Assembly (NCBI GenBank): GCA_034927165.1
Contig: JAYFQJ010000030.1
Coordinates: 1 to 59,443, forward strand
Direction: 5' to 3'
From: Oscillospiraceae bacterium
GTDB taxonomy: Bacteria; Bacillota; Clostridia; Oscillospirales; Ruminococcaceae
Length of the DNA stretch: 59,443 nt
Shown one piece after another: positions 1,196 through 19,979 of the stretch (position 1 is the stretch's first letter; each line of letters opens with the position of its first letter). The position numbers and the translations under genes were made by a program. A model generated the notes under the pieces. That model searched no databases and was not told the DNA's origin. It saw only the letters and a list, made by a program, of their open reading frames with translations.

Positions 1196-1252
1196 AAATA
1201 AAGCGCGGAGCGTAATGATCGCTTCGCGCTTTATGGTTCCTGACTTCAACAG

Positions 1253-1435: not shown

Positions 1436-1450
1436 AATTGCCTCCACCTT

Positions 1451-1518
1451 GAACCTATTATGAGTTTATTTTAGGTTCTGTATGCGTTATAATGCAGACA
1501 TGAACCCATGTTGGGTTC
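1451..1518. promoter_or_regulatory. Two inverted repeats sharing the half-site GAACCYA (candidate operators of the RHH protein)
   Basis: GAACCTA (1451-1457) pairs with TAGGTTC (1472-1478), and GAACCCA (1502-1508) pairs with TGGGTTC (1512-1518). Both sit in the divergent region between the RHH gene and the SLOG-like gene. A TATAAT lies at 1486-1491. Confidence 0.3.
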
Positions 1519-1538
1519 ACAATAACTTGGTGGTGGTG

Positions 1539-1886: not shown

Positions 1887-1905
1887 CTGCCGGAAAGGAG
1901 GATTT

Positions 1906-3615: not shown

Positions 3616-3629
3616 GGGAGGGATACAGG

Positions 3630-3986
3630 ATGGCGCAAAAGCGAGTGTGGATATATTGCCGGATAGCCCATCAGTCTCCCGATAACGATTTCGCCATGAC
3701 CGCCCAGGTAAGATGCCTGACGGAGTATGCCGCCAAGTAAGGGCTTGCTGTTGCGGGTATCACCACCGAATACGGAAACGGCCTTACGCTCGACAGGCTG
3801 GGGCTGAAGGAAGTAACGGATGCCGTGAAAGACGGAAAAGCAGAAGCAGTATTGGTCAAAAATCTGTCGCGCATCGTGCGTAGCTATCTGCTCATGCCAG
3901 AGGTCGTAAAGACGCTCAATCAGTACGGTGCGGAGCTTATCTCGGCAGACGAGGGCGTTTCCCTTGGACAGCGGGAACACTTTTGA
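3630..3986 (+). pseudogene. Decayed small resolvase-like serine recombinase
   Basis: 118-codon frame resembling a resolvase catalytic domain (..AVLVKNLSRIVRSYL..). It has an in-frame TAA at 3738-3740. The catalytic Ser position reads YCRIAHQS instead of Y-x-R-x-S. Confidence 0.6.
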
Positions 3987-3990
3987 GCAT

Positions 3991-4039
3991 AAAAAAGCGA
4001 GTGTTCTTACAGCATTTTTCAAATGCTATAAGAACACTC
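3991..4039 (-). terminator. Rho-independent terminator of tRNA-Leu
   Basis: 17-bp stem with one mismatch (3999-4015 pairs with 4023-4039). It is followed on the minus strand by a T6 run (A-run 3991-3996 on plus). Confidence 0.7.
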
Positions 4040-4043
4040 GGCA

Positions 4044-4130
4044 TGGTGCGGATAACAGGAGTTGAACCTGCATGAACTTGCGTTCACTGGAACCTGAATC
4101 CAGCGCGTCTGCCAATTCCGCCATATCCGC
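4044..4130 (-). tRNA. tRNA-Leu (anticodon CAG)
   Basis: The reverse complement folds as a cloverleaf. Acceptor GCGGATA/TATCCGC. Anticodon arm CTGGA-TTCAGGT-TCCAG. Long variable arm TGAAC-GCAA-GTTCA. T arm GCAGG-TTCAACT-CCTGT. CCA is encoded. Confidence 0.9.
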
Positions 4131-4189
4131 TTATTGTGTAAACGCGGTTTTCCGCGCGTACAGGAGCACCAACCGAACGGTGCCTAAAC

Positions 4190-4218
4190 ATGATAGCATT
4201 TTGCGGCGCGCTTGTCAA
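4190..4218 (-). promoter_or_regulatory. Sigma-A-type promoter upstream of tRNA-Leu
   Basis: On the minus strand: TTGACA (4213-4218), a 17-nt spacer, then TATCAT (4190-4195). Confidence 0.5.
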
Positions 4219-4259
4219 TTGCTCCTGCACAAAAAGAGCGGCAATTTCGAGCGGACACT

Positions 4260-4288
4260 AAAGAGATCCGGCCCCGCCGGATCTCTTT
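4260..4288 (-). terminator. Terminator after the Fe-alcohol dehydrogenase gene
   Basis: 10-bp stem AGAGATCCGG/CCGGATCTCT with a 5-nt loop, 12 nt after the stop codon. The T-run is short. Confidence 0.6.
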
Positions 4289-4300
4289 GTCTCTCCTGAT

Positions 4301-5446
4301 CTACCAGATCTTGCGATACAGCTCAACGACCTCCGCCTTCGTCGGCACGCGCGGATTGGTTTCCGTGCAGGAATCGTTGAGCGCCGCGTCCGCCATCGAG
4401 TCGAGCTCCGCTTCATATTGTTCTTTTGTGATCTTCAAAAACTCGCTCAGATGCATGGGGATATTCATATCGTCCGCCATAAAACGCAGATAATTACACA
4501 GCGAATGGATCGTCATGACCTCGTTTGTGCCGTGCAAACCAAGCGTTGTTGCGATATTGCAGTAGCGGAAAACACAGCCGGCTTTCATATCGCGGTCGCG
4601 CGATATATTGGTAATGCCGCTGTTGTATTCGATGACTGTTGGCAGCAATATGGCGTTCGCACGGCCGTGCGCGATGTGAAAATGTGCGCCCAGCTGATGC
4701 GCCATGCCGTGGTTCAGGCCGAGGCTTGCCGTGTTGAACGCGAGACCCGCAAGACACGCCGCAATGTGCATTTTTCTGCGCGCATGAATGTCTGTATTAT
4801 CCGCGTAGGAGCGATACAGGAACTGCCCGCAGATATCGGCGGCTTTTTCCGCGAGCGCGCCGGAGAATTCATTCGTCTTGGTGCTCACGTATGCCTCGAT
4901 CGCGTGGGTGAGCACGTCCATGCCGGTGTCCGCCGTGACGCCCGCGGGCACGCTCATGACGAGCGTCTCGTCGAGGATCGCCTCATCCGGCGTCATATCG
5001 TCGGAAACAAGCGGGATCTTTGTTTTTGTCTCGGGATCGGTGATGACGGCAAAGGACGTGACCTCGCTGCCGGTGCCGCTTGTTGTGGGAATGGCGATCA
5101 GGCGCGGATGCAGCTCCGCATTGACCTGCTGCGACATTTTGCGCACCGCTTTGGACAGATCCAGCGCCGAACCGCCGCCTACGCCAATGATGCCGTCGCA
5201 GCCGGAGGCGATAAAGGCCTTGACGCCTTCCGCGACCTTTTCGATGGGCGGGTCGGGGACGACATCGGTGAACAGCTCGTAGCTGATTCCTCCTGCCTCC
5301 AGCGGCTTTTTTATGTGACGGATAAGTCCGCTGTCCACGACGAACGGATCGGTGATGATAAATACTTTTTTGCATTCGATCTCGCGAAGACGCTGCAGCG
5401 CGTCTTCGCCGAAATAAATATCCGTGAGGACCTCAAATTTGTTCAT
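4301..5446 (-). CDS. Iron-containing (group III) alcohol dehydrogenase
   Basis: GVGGGSALDLSKA nucleotide-binding motif and His-rich metal site (HGMAHQLGAHFHIAHG). ATG at 5446 is preceded by GGAGA. The track start at 5452 is a TTG. Confidence 0.9.
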   Translation of the reverse strand: MNKFEVLTDIYFGEDALQRLREIECKKVFIITDPFVVDSGLIRHIKKPLEAGGISYELFTDVVPDPPIEKVAEGVKAFIASGCDGIIGVGGGSALDLSKAVRKMSQQVNAELHPRLIAIPTTSGTGSEVTSFAVITDPETKTKIPLVSDDMTPDEAILDETLVMSVPAGVTADTGMDVLTHAIEAYVSTKTNEFSGALAEKAADICGQFLYRSYADNTDIHARRKMHIAACLAGLAFNTASLGLNHGMAHQLGAHFHIAHGRANAILLPTVIEYNSGITNISRDRDMKAGCVFRYCNIATTLGLHGTNEVMTIHSLCNYLRFMADDMNIPMHLSEFLKITKEQYEAELDSMADAALNDSCTETNPRVPTKAEVVELYRKIW

Positions 5447-5576
5447 GCCCAATCTCCATAACCAACATTGTTAATTATATAACAGTATAGCACGAAATGC
5501 GCTGCTCGTATAGGCGCAGAGCGTCGCTTTATCAGAAAATAATCCGCAGTGCCGGAAAAAAGATTTGTAAAAAGTG

Positions 5577-6598
5577 CTATACGGGATCCGTCCAGTCGAT
5601 GACGACGCAGTGGTAGTTTTCCTTGTCGTACATGAGCCCGTAATAGGCATCCTGTACCTGCGCCGGGCGGATGACGTGGCTGATGAGCGCGCGGACATCC
5701 AGCTCACCGCGGGAAAGCAATCCGCAGATAACGCGGTAATTGCGTTCAACGCAGACGCGCGAGCCCTCTGTCTCATACACGGGATCAAGGCTGTTGAAGG
5801 CGCCCGTCACACGCAGCATATTCATATGGATGGCGCTCAGCAGCGGCGTCAGCTCGCCGCTGAAGGGCGCGCGTGGAGAGCTAAGCAGGATCACCTGTCC
5901 GTATTTCCCGCAGCTCATCAGAGCGTTCGCGATGGCGGGCGACGCCCCCGTCGCATCCGCCGCGATGTCGACGCCCCGGCCGCCGGTCAGCGCCTTCAGC
6001 GCCGCGACCTGCTCCTGCGGCGGACAGTCGAGCGTCTGCTCAATGCCGAACTGCCGCGCGAGCGCGCAGCGACTGGGCACGGGATCGACGCCGATGACCC
6101 GCGCGCCGCATTTTTTGTAGAGCGCGCCGCGATGAGGCCGATCGCGCCGAGACCGAATACGGCGAGCGTGTCGCCGAGCTTCACCTGCGTTGCGTTGACG
6201 CCGCTCATGGCGACAAGGCCGAGCGTGATGAGCGCAGCGGCCTGTGGATCGATGTCGGCGGGCAGGGGAAAGAGCATCGGCTCCTGCGTGCGCTCCCCGC
6301 GGTAAAGGCGGCAGACCGACGCGTGCGGACCGCTGTAAAAGACCCGGCCGCCGACGTCAATGTCCGTGAGCGCGCTGCCTTTTGCCAGCACGCGTCCCAC
6401 CGCGCAATAACCGGGCCGCACCGGGTAGGTGAAGCCCTGCTTGATCGCGAACACGCGGGACAGCTCGGTGCCCGCGCTGATCATCGTCGCTTCCGCGCGC
6501 AGCACCGCCTCATTCGGCAAAAGGCCGTCGAGACTGACCACCTCGCTTGCGACGGCTGCGCGGCCCTTTTCAGGAATCACGATATAATCAGACTTCAT
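5577..6598 (-). pseudogene. Zinc-type (MDR) alcohol/polyol dehydrogenase, 1-nt frameshift
   Basis: The N-terminal ORF (5996-6598) ends its conserved part at GLGAIGLIAA. The C-terminal ORF continues as LYKKCGARVIGVDP... in another frame. The frames rejoin if one base is restored in the GCGCGC tract at about 6121-6130. Confidence 0.75.
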
Positions 6599-6602
6599 AG
6601 CT

Positions 6603-7520
6603 TCAATTTCGCTCGCCGAACAGCGCGCGCAGACTGCCGCCGCAGGCGTTGAGCGCGTTGCCCGCGTCGTTTGCGCTCTTGCCTGTGCGCAGCATCGCGG
6701 CTGCGAGTTTGACGCTTCCGTCGGCAGCTGTGAGCGCCTCCCGCAGCGCCGCCTCCTCCGCTTCGGGGAAGATAGCGCGCAGGATGTTGAGACAGCGCGC
6801 GTTCAGCTTCTCGTTGGTCGCCCTGACGTCCACCATCAGATTGCTGTAGGTCTTTCCCTGCTGGATCATGGTGCAGGTCGTCAAAAGGTTGAGCACGAGC
6901 TTTTGCGCTGTGCCGGATTTCAAGCGTGTAGAGCCGGTGAGCGCCTCCGGGCCGACCTCGACCTCGATAGCGACGTCGCTGTGCTGCGCGAGGATGCTGT
7001 TTTTGTTGTTTGCGACGCACAGCGTCGCCGCTCCGACGCTTTTGGCATAATCGAGCGCGCCGATGACATAGGGTGTGCGCCCGCTCGCAGCAATGCCGCA
7101 GACGACATCATCAGCGCACGCCGTCGCCTCGCGCAGCTGCCGGACAGCGGCGTCCGCGTCATCCTCAACGTGCTCCACAGCGCTGCGTAAGGCGCGCTCG
7201 CCGCCCGCGATGATACCTACCACGCGGTCGGGGGAGACGGAGAAGGTCGGGGGGCATTCCGAGGCGTCGAGCACGCCCAGACGGCCGCTTGTGCCTGCGC
7301 CGATAAAGATCAGCCGCCCGCCGCGCCGCATACGCGCGGTGATGACGTCCACGGCGGCGGCGATGCTTCGCGCTTGCTCGTCTACGGCGTCGGCCAGCAC
7401 GCGGTTCTCATCATTGATGCGCCGCACCATGTCCACGGTGGACAAAAGGTCGATGTCCATTGTGCGCTCATTGCGCTGTTCTGTCGTCAATTTACGGATA
7501 TCCTCTGGGTTCACGCTCAT
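6603..7520 (-). CDS. murQ: N-acetylmuramic acid 6-phosphate etherase
   Basis: LTTEQRNERTMDIDLLS...GGRLIFIGAGTSGRLGVLDASECPPTF is a MurQ-type SIS signature. AAAGGAG lies 9 nt before the ATG at 7520. Confidence 0.9.
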   Translation of the reverse strand: MSVNPEDIRKLTTEQRNERTMDIDLLSTVDMVRRINDENRVLADAVDEQARSIAAAVDVITARMRRGGRLIFIGAGTSGRLGVLDASECPPTFSVSPDRVVGIIAGGERALRSAVEHVEDDADAAVRQLREATACADDVVCGIAASGRTPYVIGALDYAKSVGAATLCVANNKNSILAQHSDVAIEVEVGPEALTGSTRLKSGTAQKLVLNLLTTCTMIQQGKTYSNLMVDVRATNEKLNARCLNILRAIFPEAEEAALREALTAADGSVKLAAAMLRTGKSANDAGNALNACGGSLRALFGERN

Positions 7521-7536
7521 AGCAGGATGCTCCTTT

Positions 7537-8391
7537 TTATAAATTGAACAGATGGCGGATCGACTTGGCGACGCCCGCATTCTGCACGGTGTCGGTCACA
7601 TAATCCGCGATTTCCCTTATATCGTCGCTCGCGTTGCCCATAGCGACACAGTATCCTGCGCGCCGCATGATGGCCGCGTCGTTGCCGCTGTCGCCGAAGA
7701 CGACGGCGTTTTCCGGTGTGCTGCCGAGATGCGCACAAAGGATCTCAAGACCGGCGCCCTTGCTGACGCCGCGCGGTGAGATCTCGACCATATCGCTGTC
7801 AGTCACGACGACCTCGGCGTCGAGCGTTTCCCGCAGCATCGCGCACGCGGCATCGACGGACGACGCGCCGCGAAAGCGGCAGCCGAACTTGACGGCGGGA
7901 CGGTCGATCCTTTTCATAAGCGTCTGCGCGTCGGGAACGATATCGTACATACGCCGCAGCGAGCGAAGGCAATCCGCCTTGCGCGCGCGCGTGGGATATG
8001 CTTCGAGGAGCATATCCACATCCTGCTGCGTAATCATGCCCCCGTCCTGAAAAACGATGTGCAGCTTATCGGTGCACGCGCACAGCGTGCGCGCGAAGGT
8101 TCGGGTGCAGGCGACGTCCATCTCGACGACGCGGAGCGTTTCATGAGAGCGGATATCGGCGATGATGCCGCCGTTCGACGCGATGGCATAACGAAAACAA
8201 GGGATCGCCATAATCTCCTCGGGCAGAAAGAAGGGGTGGCGTCCGGTCGAGATGACCGTCTCCACGCCGCTTTCGCTCAGGCGGAGGATCGCGTCCCTTG
8301 TCTCGCACAACAGTGTGCCGCGGTCGAAGATGGTGCCGTCCAGGTCGAACGCGGCGACCTGAATACGGTCTTTATCAAATGAACGCGGCAA
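7537..8391 (-). CDS. Cof-type HAD-IIB sugar phosphatase
   Basis: AAFDLDGTIF motif I and GDSGNDAAIM motif IV. The start is uncertain: a TTG lies immediately after the HPr stop. Confidence 0.8.
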   Translation of the reverse strand: MPRSFDKDRIQVAAFDLDGTIFDRGTLLCETRDAILRLSESGVETVISTGRHPFFLPEEIMAIPCFRYAIASNGGIIADIRSHETLRVVEMDVACTRTFARTLCACTDKLHIVFQDGGMITQQDVDMLLEAYPTRARKADCLRSLRRMYDIVPDAQTLMKRIDRPAVKFGCRFRGASSVDAACAMLRETLDAEVVVTDSDMVEISPRGVSKGAGLEILCAHLGSTPENAVVFGDSGNDAAIMRRAGYCVAMGNASDDIREIADYVTDTVQNAGVAKSIRHLFNL

Positions 8392-8667
8392 TTACTCCTC
8401 CCCGAAGCCCGATGCGACGAGCGCGACGAGCGCGTCGACCGCGGCCTGCTCGTCCGGGCCGTCCGCGGCGATTTCTATCTCCGTGCCCTGCGCGACGCCG
8501 ATGGCGAGCAGACGAATGATGGATTTCGCATTGACAGGCTCCTCGCTGCCGTTTGCCTCGCGGATCGTCACCTTGGATTCAAAGCTCTTCGCCTTCAAAA
8601 CAAAATCGGATGCGGGACGCGCGTGCAGGCCTGTTTTGTTGATGACCGTTGTTTTGCGTGTGATCAT
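8392..8667 (-). CDS. HPr-family phosphocarrier protein (operon-embedded paralogue)
   Basis: TGLHARPAS with the active-site His, and an NAKSIIRLL Ser46-like region. 91 aa. AAGGAG RBS. Confidence 0.9.
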   Translation of the reverse strand: MITRKTTVINKTGLHARPASDFVLKAKSFESKVTIREANGSEEPVNAKSIIRLLAIGVAQGTEIEIAADGPDEQAAVDALVALVASGFGEE

Positions 8668-8695
8668 TTTCGACTCCTTGCTGTTTCTTTTTTTA

Positions 8696-9424
8696 TTAAA
8701 GGCATTTGATAATGCTCTTATACTTCTCTATATACTGCACATTGCGCGCGTCGCCGCCGGGCACGTTGCTGGAGGAGTAGGTCTCGAGCGGAAAATTCTC
8801 CTTCTCGGCGAGCTCAACGATATTTGCCGTGATGGCGTGCAGGATCATCGCGCCGGCAATGGTCGACGTCGGACAGATATTGCCGTTCGCGCTGGGCACA
8901 CACGCGTCGCCCAGCACGCCGTGGTTGTCGATCACATGATCGCACAGCTCATACAGCTTTTTTCCGGAGTGGTGCCGGGAGGAGAGCGGCTTTGAGTGTG
9001 TGAGATTGGTCAGCGCCACTGTCAGCGCGCCGCGCTGCTTCGCGCCCAGCGCCATCTCGATGGGCAGGGGATTGATGCCGCTGTTGGATATTACTACGAT
9101 CGCGTCATTTGCGCCGACCTTGTATTCGTCGAGCAGCTGCTCGGCGACGCCCTCACGGCGCTCATACAAGGAGGAAGCCGACGCGGAAACGTGCAGCATC
9201 AACGCGTCGTTGAGAATGGGGCAGACCCGCACAAGACCGCCCGCCCGATAAAAGACCTCCAGCGCCAGCAGGTGGCCGTGGCCGGTGCCGAAGGTGTAAA
9301 GCATACCGCCCTTTTTGAGGCACCCCAGCATTTCCGCCGCGACCTTTTCATAGACGTCCGCGTCGTCCTCTATTTTTCCGATGACGTCCTCTACATATTC
9401 AAAGTATTCCTCAGCGTATTTCAT
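8696..9424 (-). CDS. SIS-domain sugar-phosphate isomerase-like protein (UPF0309-type), copy B
   Basis: LYTFGTGHGHLLALEVFYRAGGL ... VVISNSGINPLPIEMA. GGAGG lies before the ATG at 9424. Confidence 0.8.
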   Translation of the reverse strand: MKYAEEYFEYVEDVIGKIEDDADVYEKVAAEMLGCLKKGGMLYTFGTGHGHLLALEVFYRAGGLVRVCPILNDALMLHVSASASSLYERREGVAEQLLDEYKVGANDAIVVISNSGINPLPIEMALGAKQRGALTVALTNLTHSKPLSSRHHSGKKLYELCDHVIDNHGVLGDACVPSANGNICPTSTIAGAMILHAITANIVELAEKENFPLETYSSSNVPGGDARNVQYIEKYKSIIKCL

Positions 9425-9462
9425 GACATCCTCCGTTTGATCGGAGCCGAGCGTCGGCTCCG

Positions 9463-10704
9463 TTATTTTGCGATGAGCGCGCACAGCTCCGACGTGATCT
9501 GCTCGGTTCCGCCCTTCGGCAGCGGGGATAACAGGCTCTCATACGTTTTTCCGTATTCGCCCTCGTCCGCCATATAGCCGGCATAATCGTCGGCATAGCC
9601 CCAAATGAGGGTCAGCTTTGCCGGGCTCGCCTGCTTGATCTGTTTTCCAAAGCGGGAGAACATCTCGCCGGGCAGCTTGCAGATGCGAAGATCGCCCATG
9701 CGCAGAATAGAAGCGTCGTAATCCGCGATGATGTGGGGGGTCGACAGCTTCAGATCGACCGCAAACAGCGACGACTGCAGGATCTTGTGCTTGTCGTATT
9801 CTTTTTCCGCATCCATCGCCGCTTGCAGCTCATTTCGGCGCTGCTGCCACTCGCTCGTGTCAATATCATATTCTCTGTGGTAATTATACAGCTCCGCGCT
9901 CGGTTGCGCAAGCTGCAGCGGCGCATAGGTGCCGTCCGAAAACATCTGCGCGACAATGCCGTCGCCCGTGCGCCGCAGCTCCGCGGCGTCGTGCCCGTGA
10001 CGGTAGTTGCGGTTGCTCATATCGCCCGCCGCTCCCTGCAGCATGACGGGGAAAACGCCGAAGCGCGTTTCGGTCTCGCGGCTGATATATCCAAGCAGAT
10101 CGCCGCTGACGAGCAGATTGTTTGCGCCGAGCACCGTCGGGTGGCAGGAAATATTCACGAGCGCCGCTTTGACCGCGCCGTCCTCGCCGGTGAACCTCAC
10201 AATGGTGACATCCTTGTCCTCCGGCTTGCCGATGCCGTTGCGATTGCCGTAAAAGCCGTCGATCCTGACCGTGTGGTAGGAGGCCTGCGCCTGCGTGAAG
10301 CCGGTCTCGAAGCATTCCGATATTGTCTCGAAAATCGTCTTTTTCAAGAATTCCTGATAGTGGATCCAAAAGCTGGGGTCGGCGTTCTCATCAAACATTT
10401 TCAGGCGCGCCGAGCGGATCTCCGGCGCGGCGTGGGTGTGGATGGACGCGACGGTCACGAGCGCCGGGTCGATGCCGAACGCCGTGTGCAGACGCTCCTT
10501 CACATATTGAACGATCTCACGCGTGAGCATGAGCACCTCGACGTCACACAGCACGACGAAGTCTCCGTCGATGTCGAGTACTGCGGCGGTGCATTTCAGC
10601 GCATCCAGGACGCCGGCGGATTTCTCGGTGCGCATGGAATAGCCCGCGAGATAGCAGGGCTCCTTCGGAGTCACATACCTTGTGGCGGTGGAAACGCGCA
10701 GCAT
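9463..10704 (-). CDS. Neutral/alkaline ceramidase-like amidohydrolase-fold protein, function unknown
   Basis: The N-terminal pattern YLAGYSMRTEKSAGVLDALKCTAAVLD...VASIHTHAAPE resembles the ceramidase_alk N-domain. AGGAGG RBS. The family call is made from memory only. Confidence 0.55.
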   Translation of the reverse strand: MLRVSTATRYVTPKEPCYLAGYSMRTEKSAGVLDALKCTAAVLDIDGDFVVLCDVEVLMLTREIVQYVKERLHTAFGIDPALVTVASIHTHAAPEIRSARLKMFDENADPSFWIHYQEFLKKTIFETISECFETGFTQAQASYHTVRIDGFYGNRNGIGKPEDKDVTIVRFTGEDGAVKAALVNISCHPTVLGANNLLVSGDLLGYISRETETRFGVFPVMLQGAAGDMSNRNYRHGHDAAELRRTGDGIVAQMFSDGTYAPLQLAQPSAELYNYHREYDIDTSEWQQRRNELQAAMDAEKEYDKHKILQSSLFAVDLKLSTPHIIADYDASILRMGDLRICKLPGEMFSRFGKQIKQASPAKLTLIWGYADDYAGYMADEGEYGKTYESLLSPLPKGGTEQITSELCALIAK

Positions 10705-10705
10705 A

Positions 10706-11920
10706 TCATTGCCTCCTGTGATTTTCAAGCATTTGCGGATTGAAAACCGAATTGCCTTCGGTTTTACGGTCAAAGACCTTCACGCCCCCGACATAGGTTT
10801 CGAGCGCCCGATAATCGTCGCTGATGATGACAAAGTCGGCGTCCTTGCCCGGCAGAAGCGAGCCCTTGCGGTCGCCGAAGCCGTATTTGCGGCACGCGTT
10901 GAGAGAGGAGAGCCGCAGCACGGCGCTCATGTCCATGCCGAGATTCTCCACGAGGTTGCCCACGCCGTACAGCACCGGCTTGCTGCTGCCGCGCAGCCGG
11001 CCGCCCGGCTCGCGCACGAAGCCCTGCGCGTCGACGATGATCTCGCCGTTGTGGCCGAGGAAGCCTCTGTAAACGCCTGCGGGCGCGCCGGAATAGCCGG
11101 TGCAGTCGGAGATCATCATGATCCTGTCGAGCGGCTTTGTGCGCAGGATGAGCCTGAGCATATCATTGCACACGTGCAGGCCGTCGCATATGAGCTCACA
11201 GCAGACGCGTCCGTCGAGCAACGCGGCGCCAAGGCCTCCGACGCCGCGGTGGTGTATGCCCGTCATGACGTTGCACAGGTGCGTCGCCACCGTGACGCCG
11301 CGGTCGAACGCGGCGAAGGCCTCCTCGCTCGTGCAGTCGGAATGGGTGAAGGCGACCGTCACGCCGTTTTGAAGCAGCAGATCGATCAGCTCGTATGCGT
11401 GGGGCAGCTCTGGCGCGAGACCCATCAAGCGCAGCTTTCCGCCGCAGGCGTCGAGCATCTTCCGCACGAGCGCAAGATCGATCGGGCGCGGTTCGGTGCG
11501 CGTCCCTTTTTCGCCCACGCGGTTGAGATACGGTCCCTCAAAATGGACGCCGCCGACGGACGCGCCGTTCTGCGGCCTGCCGACACACGCGGCGACGCCG
11601 CTGAGCAGATCGACTGCCTTCCCGCCGTCGCCCGTCGCGCTGAACAGCGTCGGAAACACAAGCGTTACTCCTTCGCTCGCGACGCCTTTTAAATAGCCGT
11701 CGAGGTCGCGCCCGACAGCGCTCGCATCATCCCACAGCGAATATCCCTGTGTTCCGTGGTTGTGCGTATCAAAAATGCCCGGGATGACGCGCAGGGCGCC
11801 GATGTCCCGGGCACCTGCGCATTCTCCGGCGCCGATGCGGCGAATAACGCCGTTTTCGGTCTCCATGAAGCCGTCCACGACGCCGTATTCGGTATAAATT
11901 CTTTTGGAGCGCAGCAGCAT
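10706..11920 (-). CDS. NagA-family N-acetyl-amino-sugar-6-phosphate deacetylase, divergent paralogue
   Basis: DTHNHG, FEGPYLN, THLCNVM..HHRGVGGLGAALL, ELICDGLHV and GKDADF motifs line up with NagA. ATG at 11920 has GGGAGG 8 nt upstream. The track start at 11929 is a GTG. Confidence 0.8.
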   Translation of the reverse strand: MLLRSKRIYTEYGVVDGFMETENGVIRRIGAGECAGARDIGALRVIPGIFDTHNHGTQGYSLWDDASAVGRDLDGYLKGVASEGVTLVFPTLFSATGDGGKAVDLLSGVAACVGRPQNGASVGGVHFEGPYLNRVGEKGTRTEPRPIDLALVRKMLDACGGKLRLMGLAPELPHAYELIDLLLQNGVTVAFTHSDCTSEEAFAAFDRGVTVATHLCNVMTGIHHRGVGGLGAALLDGRVCCELICDGLHVCNDMLRLILRTKPLDRIMMISDCTGYSGAPAGVYRGFLGHNGEIIVDAQGFVREPGGRLRGSSKPVLYGVGNLVENLGMDMSAVLRLSSLNACRKYGFGDRKGSLLPGKDADFVIISDDYRALETYVGGVKVFDRKTEGNSVFNPQMLENHRRQ

Positions 11921-11925
11921 CCGCG

Positions 11926-12912
11926 TCACCTCCCGTCCGACGGGAACAGGATACCGGCGCCCCGGCGCGCCCTTTCGGTCATGCGTGTGGCGAGCAGACT
12001 GTTTTCAAACAGCTCGTCGAGCCGCAGATAATCCCGCGACAGATAGATGTCGGCGAAATCACACAGCTCATAATAGAGAGCGTTTTCGTCCGTCTGCGCA
12101 TTGTAATGCGCTTCGCCCGCCGCCGTGTGCACGTCAAAGGACAAGCAGCGGCTGCTCTCGTGCGGCAAGTAGATATACCCCGCGTCGCCCTGCAGCTGAA
12201 CGAAGTTCTCGCTGCGGCTGTCCTTTGCGCCGACGGCCTCGCAGACAAAGCCGTCGTACCGCAGCGTCAGCACGCCGGAGGTGTCGATGCCGTTGGCAGC
12301 CGTGTTCGCGAGATATCGGATATCCAAGGGCTCGCCGAATAAGCAAAGCGCAAAATACAAATTGTAATAGTTGATGTCCATGAGCGCGCCGCCCGCGAAC
12401 TCCGAATTAAAAACATTGGGATTCTTTCCATCCACGAATGCCTTATATCGGCTGGAATACTGCGAAAAATTCATCTGCACGAGGCGCAGCGAACCAAGCG
12501 CACCGAGATGCTCGCGCAGCAGCTTATAGTTCGGCAGATGGGGGACGGTGATCGCTTCAAACAAAAACAGCTCCCGCTCCCGCGCCAGCGAAACGAGCGT
12601 CTCCAGCTCCCGCAGCGTGGGGACGAACGGCTTTTCGCAGATGACGCTGCGGCCGGCGCGCAGCGCGTCGCGCGACCATTCAAAATGCAGTGAATTCGGA
12701 GAGGCGACATAGATGATATCGAGCGCCTCGTCCGAGAGGAAAGCGTCTTTGTCGCAGCTGTATTTCGTGACGCCGTGCTTTTTCGCAAAGCCGCGCGCTT
12801 TCTCCTTGTCCCTGGAATAAACGCAGGTGACCTCCATGTCCGGCACACGGCTGACGGCGTCGAAGAAGTTGTCCACGATGAAGCCGGTGCCGACGGTTCC
12901 GATGCGGATCAT
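11926..12912 (-). CDS. Gfo/Idh/MocA-family NAD(P)-dependent oxidoreductase
   Basis: MIRIGTVGTGFIVDNF Rossmann N-terminus and an EKPF motif (VICEKPFVPT). ATGA overlap with the upstream gene. Confidence 0.85.
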   Translation of the reverse strand: MIRIGTVGTGFIVDNFFDAVSRVPDMEVTCVYSRDKEKARGFAKKHGVTKYSCDKDAFLSDEALDIIYVASPNSLHFEWSRDALRAGRSVICEKPFVPTLRELETLVSLARERELFLFEAITVPHLPNYKLLREHLGALGSLRLVQMNFSQYSSRYKAFVDGKNPNVFNSEFAGGALMDINYYNLYFALCLFGEPLDIRYLANTAANGIDTSGVLTLRYDGFVCEAVGAKDSRSENFVQLQGDAGYIYLPHESSRCLSFDVHTAAGEAHYNAQTDENALYYELCDFADIYLSRDYLRLDELFENSLLATRMTERARRGAGILFPSDGR

Positions 12913-13619
12913 TGTGCGTTCTCCTTTGCCTTCTTTTTGTTCTTTTTGTCCGGGTGTGTTTCATGTGCTGCGGCGGCCTCCTGCCGCTCGAGCTTTTTCT
13001 GCTCAGCGGCGTGCTTCTGTTCCGCTATCGTCTCCTTAAAGGTCTTGATGACCATGCCCTTGTTGTAGTAGGCGTTGACGTAATTGATGCCAACGTCTTT
13101 GTTTTTTTCGAGCTTTTGTACGACGGGCATCAGCGCGGGCAGATGGCTGATGAGCACGTTCGGGATTATAAAGATCTGGCCGGGCTTCGCTTCGTCATAG
13201 GTCACGAAAACGGTGCCCTGCGGCACCTCGTCCGTCTGGAAATTCATTTTATCGTAGAATTTCGTATCGACGAGCTTCGTGAGATCGGGCGTGATAATGT
13301 CGCCCGCGAACTCGTACAGCCAGTAATTCGTAAAACTGGAATCGCGCATGCGCATGACGCGCTGCGCGCTTTTGATGTTGGCGACGGCGATCTTTCCGTC
13401 GCGCGCCATTTTTGTGATGACCCGCTTGTCCCAGTTGGCCTCGAGCCACTTGAAGACCCACAGGGAGATCACTGCCACGAGGACAAAGCCGATCAGATAG
13501 GGCGTTTTGTACTGCGGATAGGCGCTGTAAACATAATAATAGCCGCCGGCCAGCGCGAGGACGAGGACGGTGATCAGGATCAGAATATTGTTCAGTGCTT
13601 TTGCGACTTTTAATTGCAT
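12909..13619 (-). CDS. Membrane protein of unknown function inside the PTS operon
   Basis: Two N-terminal TM helices, a soluble domain and a Lys-rich tail. ATG at 13619 has AAAGGAG 6 nt upstream. Confidence 0.6.
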   Translation of the reverse strand: MQLKVAKALNNILILITVLVLALAGGYYYVYSAYPQYKTPYLIGFVLVAVISLWVFKWLEANWDKRVITKMARDGKIAVANIKSAQRVMRMRDSSFTNYWLYEFAGDIITPDLTKLVDTKFYDKMNFQTDEVPQGTVFVTYDEAKPGQIFIIPNVLISHLPALMPVVQKLEKNKDVGINYVNAYYNKGMVIKTFKETIAEQKHAAEQKKLERQEAAAAHETHPDKKNKKKAKENAQ

Positions 13620-13643
13620 AGCGCGCTCCTTTGCCTTGTTAGG

Positions 13644-13681
13644 CAGAGTGGCCACGTCGATCGCTCAAAGTGACCACTCTG
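13644..13681 (-). promoter_or_regulatory. Intra-operon hairpin between PTS IIB and the membrane-protein gene
   Basis: 12-bp inverted repeat CAGAGTGGCCAC / GTGACCACTCTG (one mismatch) with a 14-nt loop, directly upstream of the RBS. No T-run follows. Confidence 0.3.
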
Positions 13682-13738
13682 TTCCTTTTCAATACTATCG
13701 GGGCGCCGAAGCGCCGCTTCCGATAATCCGGGCGAAAT

Positions 13739-14227
13739 CTACAGACCCGCCTTGGTGAGCAGCTCCAAAAAATTCTGGGGCTCGTAGGTGGAGACGGTCT
13801 GCGTCGTCAGCTTGCCGCCGCGCAGCTCCGCGATCTTGCGGTATACGACCGCGTCTTCCTTTGTCGCGGCGATCGCGCGCTTCTCGACCATCACGTAATC
13901 GGTTCCGGCGATGGGCGCGGCGTTGCCGACGTTGACCTCGTCGACGTGCAGGCCGCTCTCCAGGATGCGCAGGGCGTCCGCCGGGAATTTGGCGATGACG
14001 AACAGCGTCTGATCGGGATGCTCCTGGTCGTACTTGATGAGCTCGTCGACCGACAAAACCAGTACCTTTGCATCTCTCGCCGCCAGCGGCAGCGCCATCT
14101 TTTGAATGGGGTCCTTCGCGACGGCGTCGTTGACGACGGCGATCGCGTCGGCGTTGATGCGGCGCATCCAGGTGACGGCCACCTGCCCGTGGATCAGTCT
14201 GTTGTCTATGCGAAGATGTTTGATCAT
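13739..14227 (-). CDS. PTS mannose/sorbose-family EIIB
   Basis: MIKHLRIDNRLIHGQV carries the phospho-His motif. Confidence 0.9.
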   Translation of the reverse strand: MIKHLRIDNRLIHGQVAVTWMRRINADAIAVVNDAVAKDPIQKMALPLAARDAKVLVLSVDELIKYDQEHPDQTLFVIAKFPADALRILESGLHVDEVNVGNAAPIAGTDYVMVEKRAIAATKEDAVVYRKIAELRGGKLTTQTVSTYEPQNFLELLTKAGL

Positions 14228-14640
14228 TTGTTGTTCAGCCCTCTCTGTTTCATAAGTTCATTGACGTCCACCGTTCCGACTTTTGCCATTTCCAGCGTTT
14301 CGGACGTGATCTCGTCGAGATCGTCGGTGTCCTCGCGCGCGGACAACAATGTGACAAGCATTGGCATACTGAGGCCGGAGAGCACGCGCACCTTATCTCC
14401 CAGCAGGTACATCGACCTGTTGCAGGGGGTCCCGCCGAGAAGATCTGCGAGGATAAAGACACCGCCGCCGGTGTCGACCTCTCTGACCTTTGCTTCCAAC
14501 TTGGACTGGAACTCATCCGGGTTATCTTCGGGCCATAATGTCAAACTCACGCACTGACAGAAGTCCGGATACAACATGGGCGCCGACGTCATCATTCCAT
14601 CGGCCATTCCGCCGTGGCTTATCAGAACAATCCCGACCAT
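14224..14640 (-). CDS. PTS mannose/sorbose-family EIIA
   Basis: MVGIVLISHGGMADG carries the active-site His. ATGA overlap with the IIB gene. Confidence 0.9.
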   Translation of the reverse strand: MVGIVLISHGGMADGMMTSAPMLYPDFCQCVSLTLWPEDNPDEFQSKLEAKVREVDTGGGVFILADLLGGTPCNRSMYLLGDKVRVLSGLSMPMLVTLLSAREDTDDLDEITSETLEMAKVGTVDVNELMKQRGLNNK

Positions 14641-14641
14641 A

Positions 14642-15469
14642 TCAGCCCATGATACCGAGCGCGCCGAGAACGAAAGCGAGGACGGCGACGATCAGGATGA
14701 CCTTGACGGGCGAGATCTTCTTGGTCTTGAGCAGCCAATAGCACAAACCGACAAGGCAGATCGGGAGCAGATAGGGAAGGATGCCGTCGAGCGTATCCTG
14801 CAGCGCGATCGTCTTTGTGACGGCTTCGCCGGCTTCGTTCGTCAGCTCTTTGGTGTAGGCATATTTCAGCTTGACGCCGATCATGCTCGGCACAAAGCCG
14901 CCGACGACGGTCAGACCGAGGATCTGCGCGGCCTCGCGCAGCGAGTTGAAATCGCTGTTGCCGCTGATGTCCTCTATGATCTTGACGGAACGGTTGTAGC
15001 CCCATCTGAACAGCGGCCAGCGCAGCAGGAATAGGATGAGCAGCGGGATGATGACCACCGGAACGGCCAGAAGGCTGCCCTCGTTCGCGAGCGACGCGGC
15101 GATGATATAAGTGATGGGCTGTACGAGGACGGCCTGCACGGTGTCGCCGATGCCGGCGAGCGGTCCCATGAGGGCGACCTTGATGCTGTCGGACATCTCG
15201 GGCTGATAGTCCTCCTCAAGAGCGACGGAAGCGCCCATGATGATGGCGGAAGCGCCCGGATGGCAATTGTAGAACTGCATATGCCGCTCGAGGTTTTCGC
15301 AGACCTCGTCGTTGGTATCATACAGCTCCTGCATGATGGGGACCATCGCATACGCAAAGCCGGAGGCCTGCATACGCTCGTAGTTCCAGCACCACTGCAG
15401 CGTCCAGTTGTGACGGTTGGCAGCCTTTTTCAGGGCCGCCTCGGAAAGCTTTTTATTTGTTTTTGCCAT
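14642..15469 (-). CDS. PTS mannose/sorbose-family EIID
   Basis: The N-terminus ...WTLQWCWNYERMQASGFAYAMVP is typical of IID. Multi-pass membrane protein. Confidence 0.9.
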   Translation of the reverse strand: MAKTNKKLSEAALKKAANRHNWTLQWCWNYERMQASGFAYAMVPIMQELYDTNDEVCENLERHMQFYNCHPGASAIIMGASVALEEDYQPEMSDSIKVALMGPLAGIGDTVQAVLVQPITYIIAASLANEGSLLAVPVVIIPLLILFLLRWPLFRWGYNRSVKIIEDISGNSDFNSLREAAQILGLTVVGGFVPSMIGVKLKYAYTKELTNEAGEAVTKTIALQDTLDGILPYLLPICLVGLCYWLLKTKKISPVKVILIVAVLAFVLGALGIMG

Positions 15470-15471
15470 TG

Positions 15472-16215
15472 TTATTCAGCCTCCCCCTTCGTCTTTTTGT
15501 AGCTCGTGAAGAGCGCGCCCGCGGCGATACCTATGATCGCGAGGCCGAGCGTCGGAACGCCCATGAACGCGAACAGTGCGTAGCCGAGAAGCATAAACGG
15601 CCAATAGTGCTTGATGTCCATATAGGACAGCAGAAGCGCGAAGCCGACCGCCGGCAGGCATTTTCCGATGACAGACAGACCGTTTTTGATCCACGCGTAT
15701 TTCTCAACGAAATTGGCGATGACCATGTATTTGTCAATGAAAAGCATGCCGACGAACACGGGGATGAAGCGGCTCCAGAACCAGCCCATGGTGCCCATGA
15801 GGTGCCAGCGCTCGAAGGCCTTGACGTCCTTGCGCGCGAGGGCCTTGTCGCCGCCGTGCTGGAAGACGGTCGTCGCGGCGCGGCCGAGGATATCAAACCA
15901 GGACATCAGCAGCGCGATGACCGAGCCGATAACGATGCCCTGCGTCACATCGCCGCTCTGGGATGCGACGACGACGCCGAACATGGCGCCGACGTTGTAG
16001 TCCGGGATGGTGGCGCCTCCGTAGGTGTAGAAGCCGAGAGCCATCAGGGCGCAGGAAGCGCCGACTTGCAGGCCGAGGGTGACGTTTCCGACAATGAGAC
16101 CGGTTACGAATGCGAAGATAATGGGGGTGTACAGACCGCCCATCGCCAGCGAAGCAAACAGGATCATGAGACCTGTGAACGTTGCCAGCACAAACGCAAG
16201 TAACACTGTGTTCAT
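15472..16215 (-). CDS. PTS mannose/sorbose-family EIIC
   Basis: Hydrophobic 247-aa protein with IIC-like sequence, positioned directly upstream of IID. Confidence 0.85.
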   Translation of the reverse strand: MNTVLLAFVLATFTGLMILFASLAMGGLYTPIIFAFVTGLIVGNVTLGLQVGASCALMALGFYTYGGATIPDYNVGAMFGVVVASQSGDVTQGIVIGSVIALLMSWFDILGRAATTVFQHGGDKALARKDVKAFERWHLMGTMGWFWSRFIPVFVGMLFIDKYMVIANFVEKYAWIKNGLSVIGKCLPAVGFALLLSYMDIKHYWPFMLLGYALFAFMGVPTLGLAIIGIAAGALFTSYKKTKGEAE

Positions 16216-16270
16216 AGCTTACTCCTTACTCAATTTTTTATTTCAAACGGGGAACAACACCCGTCCAAAA

Positions 16271-16975
16271 TCACATATGGTAGAGCCGGTCAAAGTGTTT
16301 GTCGAGCAGCAGCTGGTTGTACGCCTCGCCGCCGTCTATGTTCTGGGATTTGAAGAAGGGCGGGGTGACGCCGCGGGACAGGAGCATCTTCGCCGCCTCA
16401 AGCACGACCGCCTGCAGCGCGACCGCCGTCGTGATCGTCGACATACCGCAGATGCCGGTGTCGAGACCGTCAAGGTGAACGCACGCGTCGCCGTCCGGCA
16501 CCTGATTGTCGATGACGACGTCGGCAAGCTCAAACAGCCGCTTGCCGGATTTGTGCTTGGATGTGAGCTTTTTGCTGGCCTCCACGGAGGTGACCGCGAC
16601 GACCTTGGCGCCGCGCCGCCGCGCTTCGCACGCGATCTCCAAAGGCAGCGGGTTGCGGCCGGAATTGGAGATGATGAAGACGACGTCGTTTTCGCGGATG
16701 TCTACCTTTTTCAAAAAAATCTCCGCAACGCCCGGAACGGACTCGTACAGTCCGTTCGCCGGCTCGCGGATCGCCTTCGTGGGCACGAAGCCGCCCGCGC
16801 GGTGACACAGCTCCAGCGCGCCCGCGTTGGAATGTCCCGAGCCGAACGCCTGCAGGATGCCGCCCGCCTCAAATGTATCGGCGATGCACTTTGCCGCGGC
16901 GAGAATATTAGCGCCCTGCGTCCGCTGCAGCTGCCCCATGAGCTCGTATGCGGTCGTGAATACTTCGTTTTCCAT
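16271..16975 (-). CDS. SIS-domain sugar-phosphate isomerase-like protein (UPF0309-type), copy A
   Basis: LQAFGSGHSNAGALELCHRAGGF ... FIISNSGRNPLPLEIA. It aligns along its whole length with copy B. Confidence 0.8.
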   Translation of the reverse strand: MENEVFTTAYELMGQLQRTQGANILAAAKCIADTFEAGGILQAFGSGHSNAGALELCHRAGGFVPTKAIREPANGLYESVPGVAEIFLKKVDIRENDVVFIISNSGRNPLPLEIACEARRRGAKVVAVTSVEASKKLTSKHKSGKRLFELADVVIDNQVPDGDACVHLDGLDTGICGMSTITTAVALQAVVLEAAKMLLSRGVTPPFFKSQNIDGGEAYNQLLLDKHFDRLYHM

Positions 16976-17060
16976 TTTTATGCATTCCCCTTCGAATGTT
17001 GTGCAATACAAACAAAAAACTTTTACTGAATCTTATAATTAAAGTGATATTGTGTTAACA

Positions 17061-17099
17061 TTCTGTAAACAGAATATCCTCGCCGCGCTTTTTTGTCAA
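17061..17099 (-). promoter_or_regulatory. Candidate promoter with overlapping palindromic operator for the SIS-PTS operon
   Basis: On the minus strand: TTGACA (17094-17099), 17 nt, then TATTCT (17071-17076). The 14-bp palindrome TTCTGTTTACAGAA (17061-17074) overlaps the -10. TGTTAACA is adjacent. Confidence 0.4.
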
Positions 17100-18857: not shown

Positions 18858-19979
18858 ATGCAGATCAAAAACGGACGTGTATTCTGCGCGGACGGGACCT
18901 TCCACGACGCCGATGTTTTTGCCGAGGGCGACCGCATCGCCGCGGCTGCCGGCGGAGAAACGCTGGACGCGAAGGGCTGCATTGTCGCGCCGGGCTTTGT
19001 GGACTGCCATATCCACGGCGCGCACCGCCATGATTTCTGCGAGGGGACGGACGCGGCGAACGGCGATATCGCCGCCTATCTCGCGTCGGTGGGCGTGACA
19101 AGCTATCTCGGTACGACTATGGCGATGGAAAAGGACGTCCTGCGCGCGATTTTGAAGAGCGCAAAGCATTTTATGGACGTCCCGGAGCCGGGTCGGGCGG
19201 TCATGCGGGGCGTCAACCTCGAGGGACCCTTTGCGTCTAAAGAGAAGAAGGGCGCCATGCAGGAAACGCTGCTGCTGCTGCCGGATTTTGATTTTCTGTG
19301 CGAGCTCGACGCGCTGTGCGGCGGCCGTATCATCTTCGCGGACGTTGCGCCCGAGCTGCCCGGCGGCATGGACTTCGTCCGCGCGGCAAGCGAAAAATAT
19401 GTCGTCAGCATCGCTCATTCCGCCGCGGATTACGACACGGCAAAGGAGGCGTTTCTGAACGGCGCGTCCCATGTGACCCATTTATACAACGCAATGATGC
19501 CGTTTTCCCACCGCGCGCCGGGGCTCATCGGCGCGGCGATGGATTACGCGCGGGACGTCGAGCTCATCAGCGACGGCATCCATGTACACCCGTCGGCAGT
19601 GCGCGCGGCGTTCCGTCTGTTCGGCGACGACCGCGTCTGCCTGATCAGCGACGCGATGATGGCCTGCGGTATGCCCAACGGCGCATATGAGCTCGGCGGT
19701 CAGGATGTCACCGTGAAGGACGGGCTCGCCACGCTCGCGAACGGCACCATCGCCGGCAGCGCGACGCCGCTGAGCGAATGCTTCCGCCGCGCGGTCAAGG
19801 AGTTCGACATCCCGCTCGTGTCGGCGCTCAAGGCCGCGACGATCAACCCGGCGCGCGCGGCGCGCCTCGACGGAGACGTCGGCAGCATCGCGGTCGGCAA
19901 GCGCGCTGATTTTACGCTGCTCGACGGGGACACCCTGCGCGTGCGACACTGTGTCGTCGGCGGCGCGCTGGTCTTCTGA
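18858..19979 (+). CDS. nagA: N-acetylglucosamine-6-phosphate deacetylase
   Basis: GFVDCHIHG, LEGPF, THLYNAM...HRAPGLIGAA, ELISDGIHVHP, GKRADF. GGAGG RBS. Confidence 0.9.
   Translation: MQIKNGRVFCADGTFHDADVFAEGDRIAAAAGGETLDAKGCIVAPGFVDCHIHGAHRHDFCEGTDAANGDIAAYLASVGVTSYLGTTMAMEKDVLRAILKSAKHFMDVPEPGRAVMRGVNLEGPFASKEKKGAMQETLLLLPDFDFLCELDALCGGRIIFADVAPELPGGMDFVRAASEKYVVSIAHSAADYDTAKEAFLNGASHVTHLYNAMMPFSHRAPGLIGAAMDYARDVELISDGIHVHPSAVRAAFRLFGDDRVCLISDAMMACGMPNGAYELGGQDVTVKDGLATLANGTIAGSATPLSECFRRAVKEFDIPLVSALKAATINPARAARLDGDVGSIAVGKRADFTLLDGDTLRVRHCVVGGALVF

Follow-up and report, generated by a model that had tools for sequence, protein, structure and literature searches.

A conserved Man-family phosphotransferase gene cluster with a ceramidase-like protein in an Oscillospiraceae bacterium, a candidate catabolic unit for a substituted amino sugar

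The subject of this analysis is a gene cluster on the minus strand of a 59,443-nucleotide stretch of DNA from an Oscillospiraceae bacterium (assembly GCA_034927165.1, contig JAYFQJ010000030.1; the whole stretch is called the window below). The cluster combines the genes of a Man-family phosphotransferase system (PTS) with those of MurQ, the N-acetylmuramic acid (MurNAc) 6-phosphate etherase, of two SIS-domain proteins (SIS-A and SIS-B), a NagA paralogue, a Cof-type HAD phosphatase, a Gfo/Idh/MocA oxidoreductase (Gfo) and a short ceramidase-like protein (the mini-ceramidase, Cer) (Table 1). We propose that the locus is one conserved catabolic unit for an amino sugar which carries an extra amide or a 3-O substituent, and that this sugar is likely a derivative of muramic acid. 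The proposal as a whole is, in our judgement, evenly poised between right and wrong; we are more confident of its general part, a PTS-linked amidase/lyase locus for amino sugars, and less so of the muramyl nature of the substrate. The most likely candidate substrates are MurNAc, a MurNAc-amino-acid, a MurNAc-peptide, and a muramyl lactam or related muramyl amide.

The arrangement of the genes is shared by about 25 independent assemblies from two phyla. A comparison of gene neighbourhoods, as suggested in an earlier note on this DNA, shows it to recur in metagenome-assembled genomes (MAGs) of Oscillospiraceae and Anaerolineaceae. The nearest relative, Oscillospiraceae MAG 5C_30, has the identical order from the divergent canonical NagA gene, the upstream HAD gene and the CutC gene down to murQ and also the iron-type alcohol dehydrogenase (Fe-ADH) gene beyond it, with protein identities of 60-95%. 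About 18 Anaerolineaceae/Chloroflexota MAGs from independent studies keep the cluster order at protein identities of 41-87%, without IIA and HPr and with a zinc-type alcohol dehydrogenase (Zn-ADH) gene after murQ. Since an order of about 15 genes is kept across two phyla, chance adjacency is excluded, and the near-identity of the order in both suggests that the whole locus moved horizontally in one piece. A Man-family PTS locus without IIA and HPr, as in the Anaerolineaceae clusters L003, L008-L022 and L025, raises the question of how this PTS is energised.

Gene families were assigned with Pfam and NCBIfam models on the translations of the open reading frames (ORFs) of the window, and every family named in the earlier note was found on the minus strand where that note had placed it. 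The ORFs are co-directional without a break from 17011 to 6603. The earlier count of fourteen genes comes down to thirteen intact ones; the fourteenth is a frameshifted Zn-ADH gene which lies just outside the range that had been given and starts 4 nt past murQ. Overlaps or gaps of a few nucleotides, also described earlier, are found at most junctions (-4 to +5 nt), but four are wider (SIS-A/IIC 55 nt, IIB/orphan 119 nt, Cer/SIS-B 38 nt and SIS-B/HPr 28 nt), and stable hairpins occur in two of these four. The reported absence of NagB, a sugar kinase and an aldolase stands: neither these nor a regulator were found among the ORFs scanned in the window, about 13 ORFs, mostly beyond 53 kb, lying outside the scan. 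The other scanned genes are housekeeping genes, except at the left edge, where a serine recombinase gene and a tRNA-Leu are found.

The phosphorelay motifs of the PTS are legible in the translations of IIA, IIB and HPr (Table 1). None of the curated equivalog models names the PTS subunits, the SIS proteins, Cer, the oxidoreductase or the in-operon NagA copy. An amino sugar as substrate, which the earlier note had predicted, is plausible, since MurQ and two NagA-type genes occur here and the models on which the PTS subunits score highest are of the Aga type.

It would be a quite different situation if the PTS, the enzymes and murQ were unrelated units that happen to lie side by side, a reading to which we attach very little weight. 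The RNA contigs described below are confined to SIS-A-IIB, structured gaps follow IIB and Cer, and the presence of MurQ, SIS-B, the in-operon HAD, HPr and IIA differs from cluster to cluster, all of which could be expected from a mere neighbourhood. The gene order, however, is constant across the two phyla, most junctions overlap or are at most 5 nt, Cer stays tied to a Man-family PTS even at 30% identity, and a search of the gap after IIB gave no promoter-like site.

The comparison also separates a core from accessory genes. MurQ is missing from four orthologous clusters, those of the MAGs L027 (Faecalibacterium), L029 (Angelakisella), L023 and L033 (both Oscillospiraceae), all of which retain HAD, CutC, SIS-A, the PTS, the orphan membrane protein, Gfo and Cer; in L023 the NagA paralogue is replaced by Zn-ADH. 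The genome scan with Cer used a 10-sequence alignment, one of 16 sequences being too diverse. Cer homologues at 30-40% identity adjoin the genes of Man-family IIB, IIC and IID in Erysipelotrichaceae, Holdemania, Solobacterium, Lachnospiraceae and Eubacterium album, usually with a Cof-type HAD and a PRD/Mga (LevR-like), PucR or DeoR regulator beside them. Two of the carriers, Holdemania filiformis DSM 12042 (L031) and Eubacterium album LFL-14 (L032), are in culture. In L005 such a module lies within an aga-like cluster with AgaS, KbaZ and NagA, in L030 genes of a DeoR regulator and a PfkB kinase precede it, and one HAD-Cer pair adjoins a Glc-type PTS with a BglG antiterminator. MurQ is absent from all of these minimal modules. 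Judged by gene content, the evolutionary core is the Man-family PTS, the mini-ceramidase and a Cof-type HAD, and MurQ, SIS-B, the NagA paralogue, HPr and Zn-ADH are lineage-specific additions. MurQ and cleavage of a lactyl ether, which the earlier note had made central, therefore belong outside the conserved core. A protein of about 345 aa without a Pfam match accompanies the minimal module in Holdemania and Erysipelotrichaceae loci (L031:15311-16357, L006:9862-10923 and L046:7685-8716), where its copies are mutually 25-36% identical.

The composition of the minimal modules bears on the substrate. According to one alternative, the core imports a non-muramyl amide conjugate, such as N-acetylglucosamine-asparagine (GlcNAc-Asn) or a hexosamine with a non-acetyl N-acyl or aminoacyl group; Cer would then free GlcNAc 6-phosphate (GlcNAc-6P) or glucosamine 6-phosphate (GlcN-6P), NagA and a deaminase would complete the breakdown, and MurQ would be a lineage add-on for a second substrate. 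In line with this, MurQ is no part of the module (PTS, Cer, Cof-type HAD and regulator) found in gut-associated Firmicutes, NagA is often adjacent (for example in L005 and L041), and the surroundings in L005 and L030 are those just described. The 2-acylamido-1,3-diol motif of ceramidase substrates would also be common to N-acyl hexosamines, and the PTS uptake of GlcNAc-Asn by Enterococcus faecalis (Combret et al. 2023, as cited in PMC11976118) offers a precedent. On the other hand, the E. faecalis system has a Lac/Cel-family PTS and an unrelated glycosylasparaginase, the window cluster has an equivalog-level MurQ, and a non-muramyl conjugate leaves unexplained the three MurQ/NagS-clade enzymes, the two oxidoreductases and the CutC of the extended cluster. 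We consider this alternative unlikely, though it is the one to be taken most seriously.

Cer itself is a predicted Zn-amidase, as suggested by its motifs and by its modelled fold. A profile of its family finds the neutral ceramidases 4wgk and 2zws at about 3e-19, with the HTH (HxH), HPT, P(G)E and Tyr motifs aligned; in ceramidases the Zn ligands lie in these motifs. Across the family, the residues of the metal-site motifs and a GDMSNR motif, the counterpart of the ceramidase GDVSPN motif, are invariant or nearly so. The AlphaFold model (pLDDT 92) matches the ceramidase catalytic domain in Foldseek at 4e-28, with query-normalised TM-scores (TMq) of 0.72-0.75 (0.75 for 2zws) and target-normalised scores (TMt) of 0.46-0.50, and the Pfam match spans residues 185-237 of the 436-aa ORF translation. 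Compared with the neutral/alkaline ceramidases (PF04734; 2zws, 4wgk), Cer is alike in the catalytic fold, the HxH/H/E/Y positions and the GD(M/V)S(N/P) motif. It differs in its length of 413 aa without the C-terminal Ig-like domain (the full ceramidase architecture has about 630-690 aa), in an N-terminus without hydrophobic leader or signal peptide, in an identity of only about 16%, and in its gene partners, which are PTS genes and not genes of lipid metabolism. From its sequence Cer is probably located in the cytoplasm.

An exhaustive profile search places 2,109 representative clusters in the Cer family at E<=1e-30, with lengths of about 400 aa in most of the top 150 listed, which describes a large predicted amidase family that is probably cytoplasmic. 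If it is true that such ceramidase-like proteins are sugar-phosphate amidases, this would be the first function for the family so delimited, and a new module linked to a PTS would be defined in Firmicutes of the gut and the environment.

The two SIS proteins belong to a family with a single characterised member. NagS of Streptomyces (SCO4393, PDB 9eol), described in 2025, is related to MurQ and is the only UPF0309 protein with a known activity, the dehydration of GlcNAc-6P to 6P-chromogen I (PMC12680351). Among protein structures SIS-A matches 3cvj (9e-45) and NagS 9eol (9e-41) and SIS-B matches 9eol (3e-33), and both align full-length with NagS. Residues mapped by hand from the alignments to 9eol show that SIS-A and SIS-B keep H53, R64, E94, D179 and N228, which are essential for catalysis in NagS, and the phosphate-binding Ser119 and Ser121; S91 is changed to Gly in SIS-A, and SIS-B keeps S91 and has Gly in place of S54. 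The two proteins are 37% identical, by which measure their split is an old divergence, and by family membership the operon holds three enzymes of the MurQ/NagS clade. The earlier note had foreseen isomerisation or deamination as the last step of the pathway. For the SIS proteins, with the catalytic residues of NagS conserved, a MurQ/NagS-type C3 elimination fits better than a generic isomerase or deaminase activity.

The likeness to the Streptomyces NagS-NagA branch extends to the UPF0309/PRK02947 family, the catalytic residues and the partnering with NagA-type deacetylases, but the match to NagS is distant, the host is outside the Streptomycetaceae, there is no dmdR1 linkage and the genes lie within a PTS catabolic operon. 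The NagS orthologues, which are at least 58.7% identical, occur only in Streptomycetaceae and are dmdR1-linked, and tested UPF0309 homologues from outside this group gave negligible or no dehydration of GlcNAc-6P (PMC12680351). Because such homologues are inactive on GlcNAc-6P, the substrates of SIS-A and SIS-B should differ from it. Two divergent UPF0309 copies beside MurQ in a catabolic operon are a natural context in which to find the real substrates of this family.

The family of the SIS proteins also bears on deglycation of fructosamines (Amadori or Heyns products) of the gfr/frl type, in which they would act as deglycases and Cer as the deamidase of an Asn- or Gln-type conjugate. SIS-domain enzymes are present as such a pathway would have them, the known gfr system employs a Man-family PTS, and DeoR and PfkB genes precede one distant module. 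The SIS proteins, however, match PRK02947 (NagS-type) only and not the FrlB, GfrE or GfrF type, MurQ and two NagA-type deacetylases indicate N-acetyl amino sugars, and there is no sigma-54/LevR regulator here; we find deglycation hardly credible for this locus.

The metal ligands of NagA, its catalytic Asp and its phosphate-binding Arg are retained in the in-operon paralogue, which shares 29% identity with the canonical NagA next to it. In the paralogue a clade-specific GEKGxR insertion lies where E. coli NagA has its acyl-polarising residue. The in-operon HAD and the upstream HAD are likewise only weakly related. The paralogue pairs (SIS 37%, NagA 29%, HADs weak) are thus ancient, which argues for distinct specificities within each pair.

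The best structural matches of Gfo are two functionally uncharacterised proteins of S. pneumoniae, 2ho5 and 4iq0 (1e-37). The role of a GH109-like NAD-dependent glycosidase was considered for Gfo but is not supported, as no GH109 structure is among its PDB matches at E<=1e-8. The AF2 model (pLDDT 89) of the orphan membrane protein, TMunk, shows a pair of transmembrane helices, a small domain folded as a beta-barrel and a C-terminal helix rich in Lys, and Foldseek gave no significant fold match for it in the PDB. The family of TMunk has about 30 homologue clusters, and the protein has the same position in every orthologous cluster checked.

In Streptomyces the successive action of NagS and NagA yields an imine, and the route is a toxic dead end (PMC12680351). 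It is tempting to speculate that a productive, NagB-free route has been made from this chemistry, although we rate the idea as distinctly less probable than the import of a non-muramyl conjugate. In such a route the UPF0309 lyases would dehydrate N-acyl hexosamine 6-phosphates supplied by the PTS, or eliminate their 3-O group, to an enamide of the 6P-chromogen-I type. The NagA paralogue or Cer, in a step for which our expectation is equally low, would deacylate this enamide to an enamine or imine, from which ammonia leaves spontaneously to give a 3-deoxy-hexosulose 6-phosphate. Gfo and Zn-ADH would channel the latter by redox reactions to a 3-deoxy-ketose or to an intermediate like 2-keto-3-deoxy-6-phosphogluconate and so to central metabolism, and, with the same small probability, the Cof phosphatases and CutC would deal with reactive or toxic intermediates. 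The imine formation in Streptomyces, the NagS residues kept in SIS-A and SIS-B, the divergent NagA paralogue with its clade-specific motif, the recurrence of two oxidoreductases in the cluster family and the failure to find NagB in the ORFs scanned speak for it. Against it, the cluster is without aldolase or kinase, the known branch is a dead end, the tested UPF0309 proteins from outside the Streptomycetaceae were inactive on GlcNAc-6P, NagB may sit elsewhere in the genome, and the steps past the imine come from chemical reasoning only.

The single transcript that the earlier note had deduced from the gene spacing is supported only in part. The sequence of the window is present in groundwater, wastewater and manure metagenomes, and contigs of at least 99% identity from two groundwater metatranscriptomes and one of wastewater cover 13590-16931 only, that is SIS-A to IIB. 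The RNA contigs of runs X3 and X6 stop at 13732 and 13716, i.e. at hairpin 1, and the RNA runs contained no sampled word from 5600-13600, these data being assembled contigs of very small libraries in which zero depth is no proof of absence. The gap in question, between IIB and the orphan gene, holds two strong hairpins (free energy -53 kcal/mol, z = -3.4), of which hairpin 1 recurs in relatives as a structure but not as a sequence.

Hairpin 2 is kept in both sequence and structure in 13 of 13 distinct orthologous intergenic regions. In an alignment of 11 sequences, 96% of the cells are paired and both sides have changed in 7 of the 15 pairs, and the observed values are attained by none of 500 shuffles and by no slid register. 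Its G-U pairs occur on the sense strand only. Such pairs, which would be A-C mismatches on the other strand, and the compensatory changes favour an RNA over a DNA operator palindrome, which was also considered. Hairpin 2 may have a protein-binding role, and as a corollary of the speculative NagB-free route it could form, with the membrane-anchored TMunk (beta-barrel, Lys-rich tail), a transport-coupled RNA switch. A T-rich run follows it in the Faecalibacterium, Anaerolineaceae and L023 versions and is lacking in the window. Rfam gave no family for hairpins 1 and 2 or for the 5' leader, the sole real match being the tRNA at 4047-4130. In the Faecalibacterium cluster (L027:6318-6693) the same gap has about 370 nt, with three GC-rich repeats (CCCGCCGCCCTGCGGCGGAG...) after the conserved hairpin.

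That the boundary is the same in three samples and coincides with a conserved RNA structure speaks against an evenly abundant mRNA of 10 kb, and it fits attenuation, partial termination or segmental stabilisation at this site. A promoter 5' of SIS-A would drive SIS-A and the PTS genes, and the conserved stem-loop after IIB would attenuate or segment the message, so that the mRNA of the downstream enzymes would be much scarcer and expression probably non-uniform. Just 3' of the -10 element lies a TACAGAAT box (17040-17070, minus strand) that is common to the window, L001 and the regions 5' of SIS-A in the Anaerolineaceae loci L013, L017 and L025; in the window it falls within a TTCTGT-TT-ACAGAA palindrome and, from this sequence feature, could be an operator.

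On the reading that we prefer, an amino sugar with an extra amide or 3-O substituent would be degraded by the following scheme, each step of which we infer. The Man-family PTS (IIA, IIB, IIC and IID with their own HPr) would import and phosphorylate the compound, after which the cytoplasmic Cer would cut a non-acetyl amide on the sugar phosphate. N-acyl and N-acetyl groups would be stripped by the NagA paralogue and the canonical NagA, the paralogue acting together with Cer and the canonical enzyme last. Between these, MurQ, SIS-A and SIS-B would carry out ring opening and C3 elimination/hydration, so that the lactyl ether or other 3-O groups are removed and GlcNAc-6P or GlcN-6P is passed to central metabolism. 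Gfo, and in relatives Zn-ADH too, would perform a redox reaction on an intermediate or on a released side product, and the two Cof-type HADs would dephosphorylate an intermediate or relieve sugar-phosphate stress. Because the canonical NagA is a recurrent neighbour, an N-acetylhexosamine 6-phosphate is probably an intermediate or the product, and given such an intermediate Cer probably cleaves an amide other than the N-acetyl one. The substrate 1,6-anhydro-MurNAc, hinted at by the levoglucosan-dehydrogenase-like chemistry of Gfo, was rejected, since the PTS requires a free 6-OH to phosphorylate.

The equivalog-grade MurQ and the necromass-rich communities from which the sequences come make a muramic-acid derivative the leading candidate, and microbial necromass is a plausible substrate in these communities. 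Several points weigh against this. MurQ is absent from the four orthologous clusters and from the minimal modules, so that muramic acid cannot explain the core, and no MurNAc scheme explains CutC, Gfo, Zn-ADH, the orphan protein and the two phosphatases. The known PTS for MurNAc is the Glc-family MurP, and to our knowledge no Man-family PTS for MurNAc or muropeptides has been described. The inactivity of the UPF0309 homologues tested on GlcNAc-6P counts against the proposal as a whole, and the very small size of the RNA libraries against its part on expression. The occurrence of the locus in Anaerolineaceae and Oscillospiraceae of digesters, wastewater and groundwater nevertheless bears on the anaerobic recycling of necromass and cell-wall amino sugars.

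Table 1. Features of the cluster and of its immediate surroundings in the window (genes on the minus strand are given from start to end).
Feature	Positions	Strand	Assignment and remarks
Promoter-like site TTGACA-17-TATTCT	17071-17099	-	about 95 nt 5' of the SIS-A start; a consensus match only, at 10 of 12 positions
SIS-A	16975-16271	-	SIS_2, PRK02947/UPF0309, NagS family, MurQ-related; 259 bits (cutoff 135)
PTS IIC (Man-family)	16215-15472	-	Pfam EII-Sor 1.9e-50; under every equivalog cutoff
PTS IID (Man-family)	15469-14642	-	EIID-AGA 6.8e-83; top equivalog galactosamine IID, 187 bits (cutoff 400)
PTS IIA (Man-family)	14640-14224	-	SHG phospho-His motif; top equivalog AgaF, under cutoff
PTS IIB (Man-family)	14227-13739	-	IHGQ phospho-His motif
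Hairpin 1	13694-13727	-	gap after IIB
Hairpin 2	13645-13680	-	stem-loop AGAGUGGUCAC...GUGGCCACUCU, just 5' of the orphan gene
Orphan membrane protein (TMunk), 236 aa	13619-12909	-	no Pfam or NCBIfam match
Gfo/Idh/MocA NAD(P)-dependent oxidoreductase	12912-11926	-	Pfam/NCBIfam
NagA paralogue	11920-10706	-	TIGR00221 200.6, under cutoff 225.65
Cer (mini-ceramidase), 413 aa	10704-9463	-	Ceramidase_alk-like (Pfam)
GC-rich hairpin, 9 bp	9442-9462	-	directly 3' of the Cer stop codon; no U-tract on the operon strand
SIS-B	9424-8696	-	PRK02947/UPF0309; 264 bits (cutoff 135)
HPr paralogue	8667-8392	-	His15 and Ser46 contexts present
Cof-type HAD-IIB phosphatase (in-operon copy)	8391-7537	-	Pfam/NCBIfam
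MurQ, MurNAc-6-phosphate etherase	7520-6603	-	TIGR00274 359 bits, above cutoff 302
Zn-ADH/MDR	6598-5577	-	frameshift near 6110-6122
CutC-family TIM-barrel protein	17942-17166	-	upstream; syntenic with the cluster in relatives
Second Cof-type HAD phosphatase	18788-17970	-	upstream; syntenic with the cluster in relatives
Canonical NagA (GlcNAc-6P deacetylase)	18858-19979	+	divergent; TIGR00221 253.7, above 225.65; syntenic in relatives

At the 3' end of the cluster, the frameshift site in the Zn-ADH gene is crossed without insertions or deletions by the contigs of an independent DNA run. The gene is intact (336 aa) in Anaerolineaceae and L023-type clusters and gone in the nearest Oscillospiraceae relative, so it appears to be decaying in this lineage; no specific MDR subfamily could be assigned to it. 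The Fe-ADH gene (lactaldehyde-reductase-like, 4301-5446, minus strand) follows 3' of the cluster after a 130-nt spacer with a -10-like TATAAT of its own, and as its synteny is confined to the closest relative, it is probably transcribed separately. Further to the left, a large serine recombinase gene (1768-3615, plus strand; Resolvase, Recombinase, Zn-ribbon and DUF4368 domains) adjoins tRNA-Leu(CAG) (4044-4130, minus strand), and over positions 1-6000 the GC content drops to 50-56%. This region, absent in the closest relative L001, is probably an integrated mobile element abutting the cluster. On the other side of the cluster, at 20227-23058 (plus strand), a 943-aa protein of unusual architecture joins a complete EF-G-like GTPase (GTP_EFTU, EFG domains II-IV and EFG_C) to a C-terminal YacP-like NYN nuclease domain (residues 805-939).

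In full-text literature searches no paper describing this cluster was found, and since neither a paper nor a curated family model gives it a function, its earlier designation as an unassigned amino-sugar pathway still applies. The statement that the gene set is unlike the textbook nag, aga, murP-murQ and gfr/frl sets also holds, as the cluster lacks the defining features of each. We see in it a catabolic PTS operon to which at least three uncharacterised protein families are central; it works in the manner of the known Man-family operons for amino sugars (aga, gnb, gfr) and has MurQ in common with the mur operon. With the murQ-murP(-murR) operons of E. coli, B. subtilis and S. aureus it has in common an equivalog-level MurQ, uptake by a PTS and an adjacent NagA, but here Man-family IIA, IIB, IIC and IID with their own HPr take the place of the Glc-family EIIBC MurP, there is no MurR/RpiR regulator, MurQ is not retained in several orthologous clusters and ten further genes are without counterpart.

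The aga/gam operons and gnb of L. casei resemble the cluster in a Man-family PTS, which here scores best on AgaF/AgaD/AgaW, in a NagA/AgaA-type deacetylase and in a SIS enzyme, and one distant Cer module lies inside an aga-like cluster. The scores of the PTS subunits are, however, far under the equivalog cutoffs, the SIS proteins are of the PRK02947 and not of the AgaS/GlmS type, and AgaS, tagatose-6P kinase, aldolase and phospho-beta-galactosidase are absent among the window ORFs scanned. With the GlcNAc-Asn locus of E. faecalis (Combret et al. 2023, cited in PMC11976118) the logic is shared, i.e. uptake of a conjugate by a PTS followed by intracellular amide cleavage to GlcNAc(-6P). The PTS of that locus is of the Lac/Cel family and its amidase an unrelated Ntn-hydrolase, and it is without the SIS lyases, MurQ and oxidoreductases that accompany the PTS and Cer in the present cluster.

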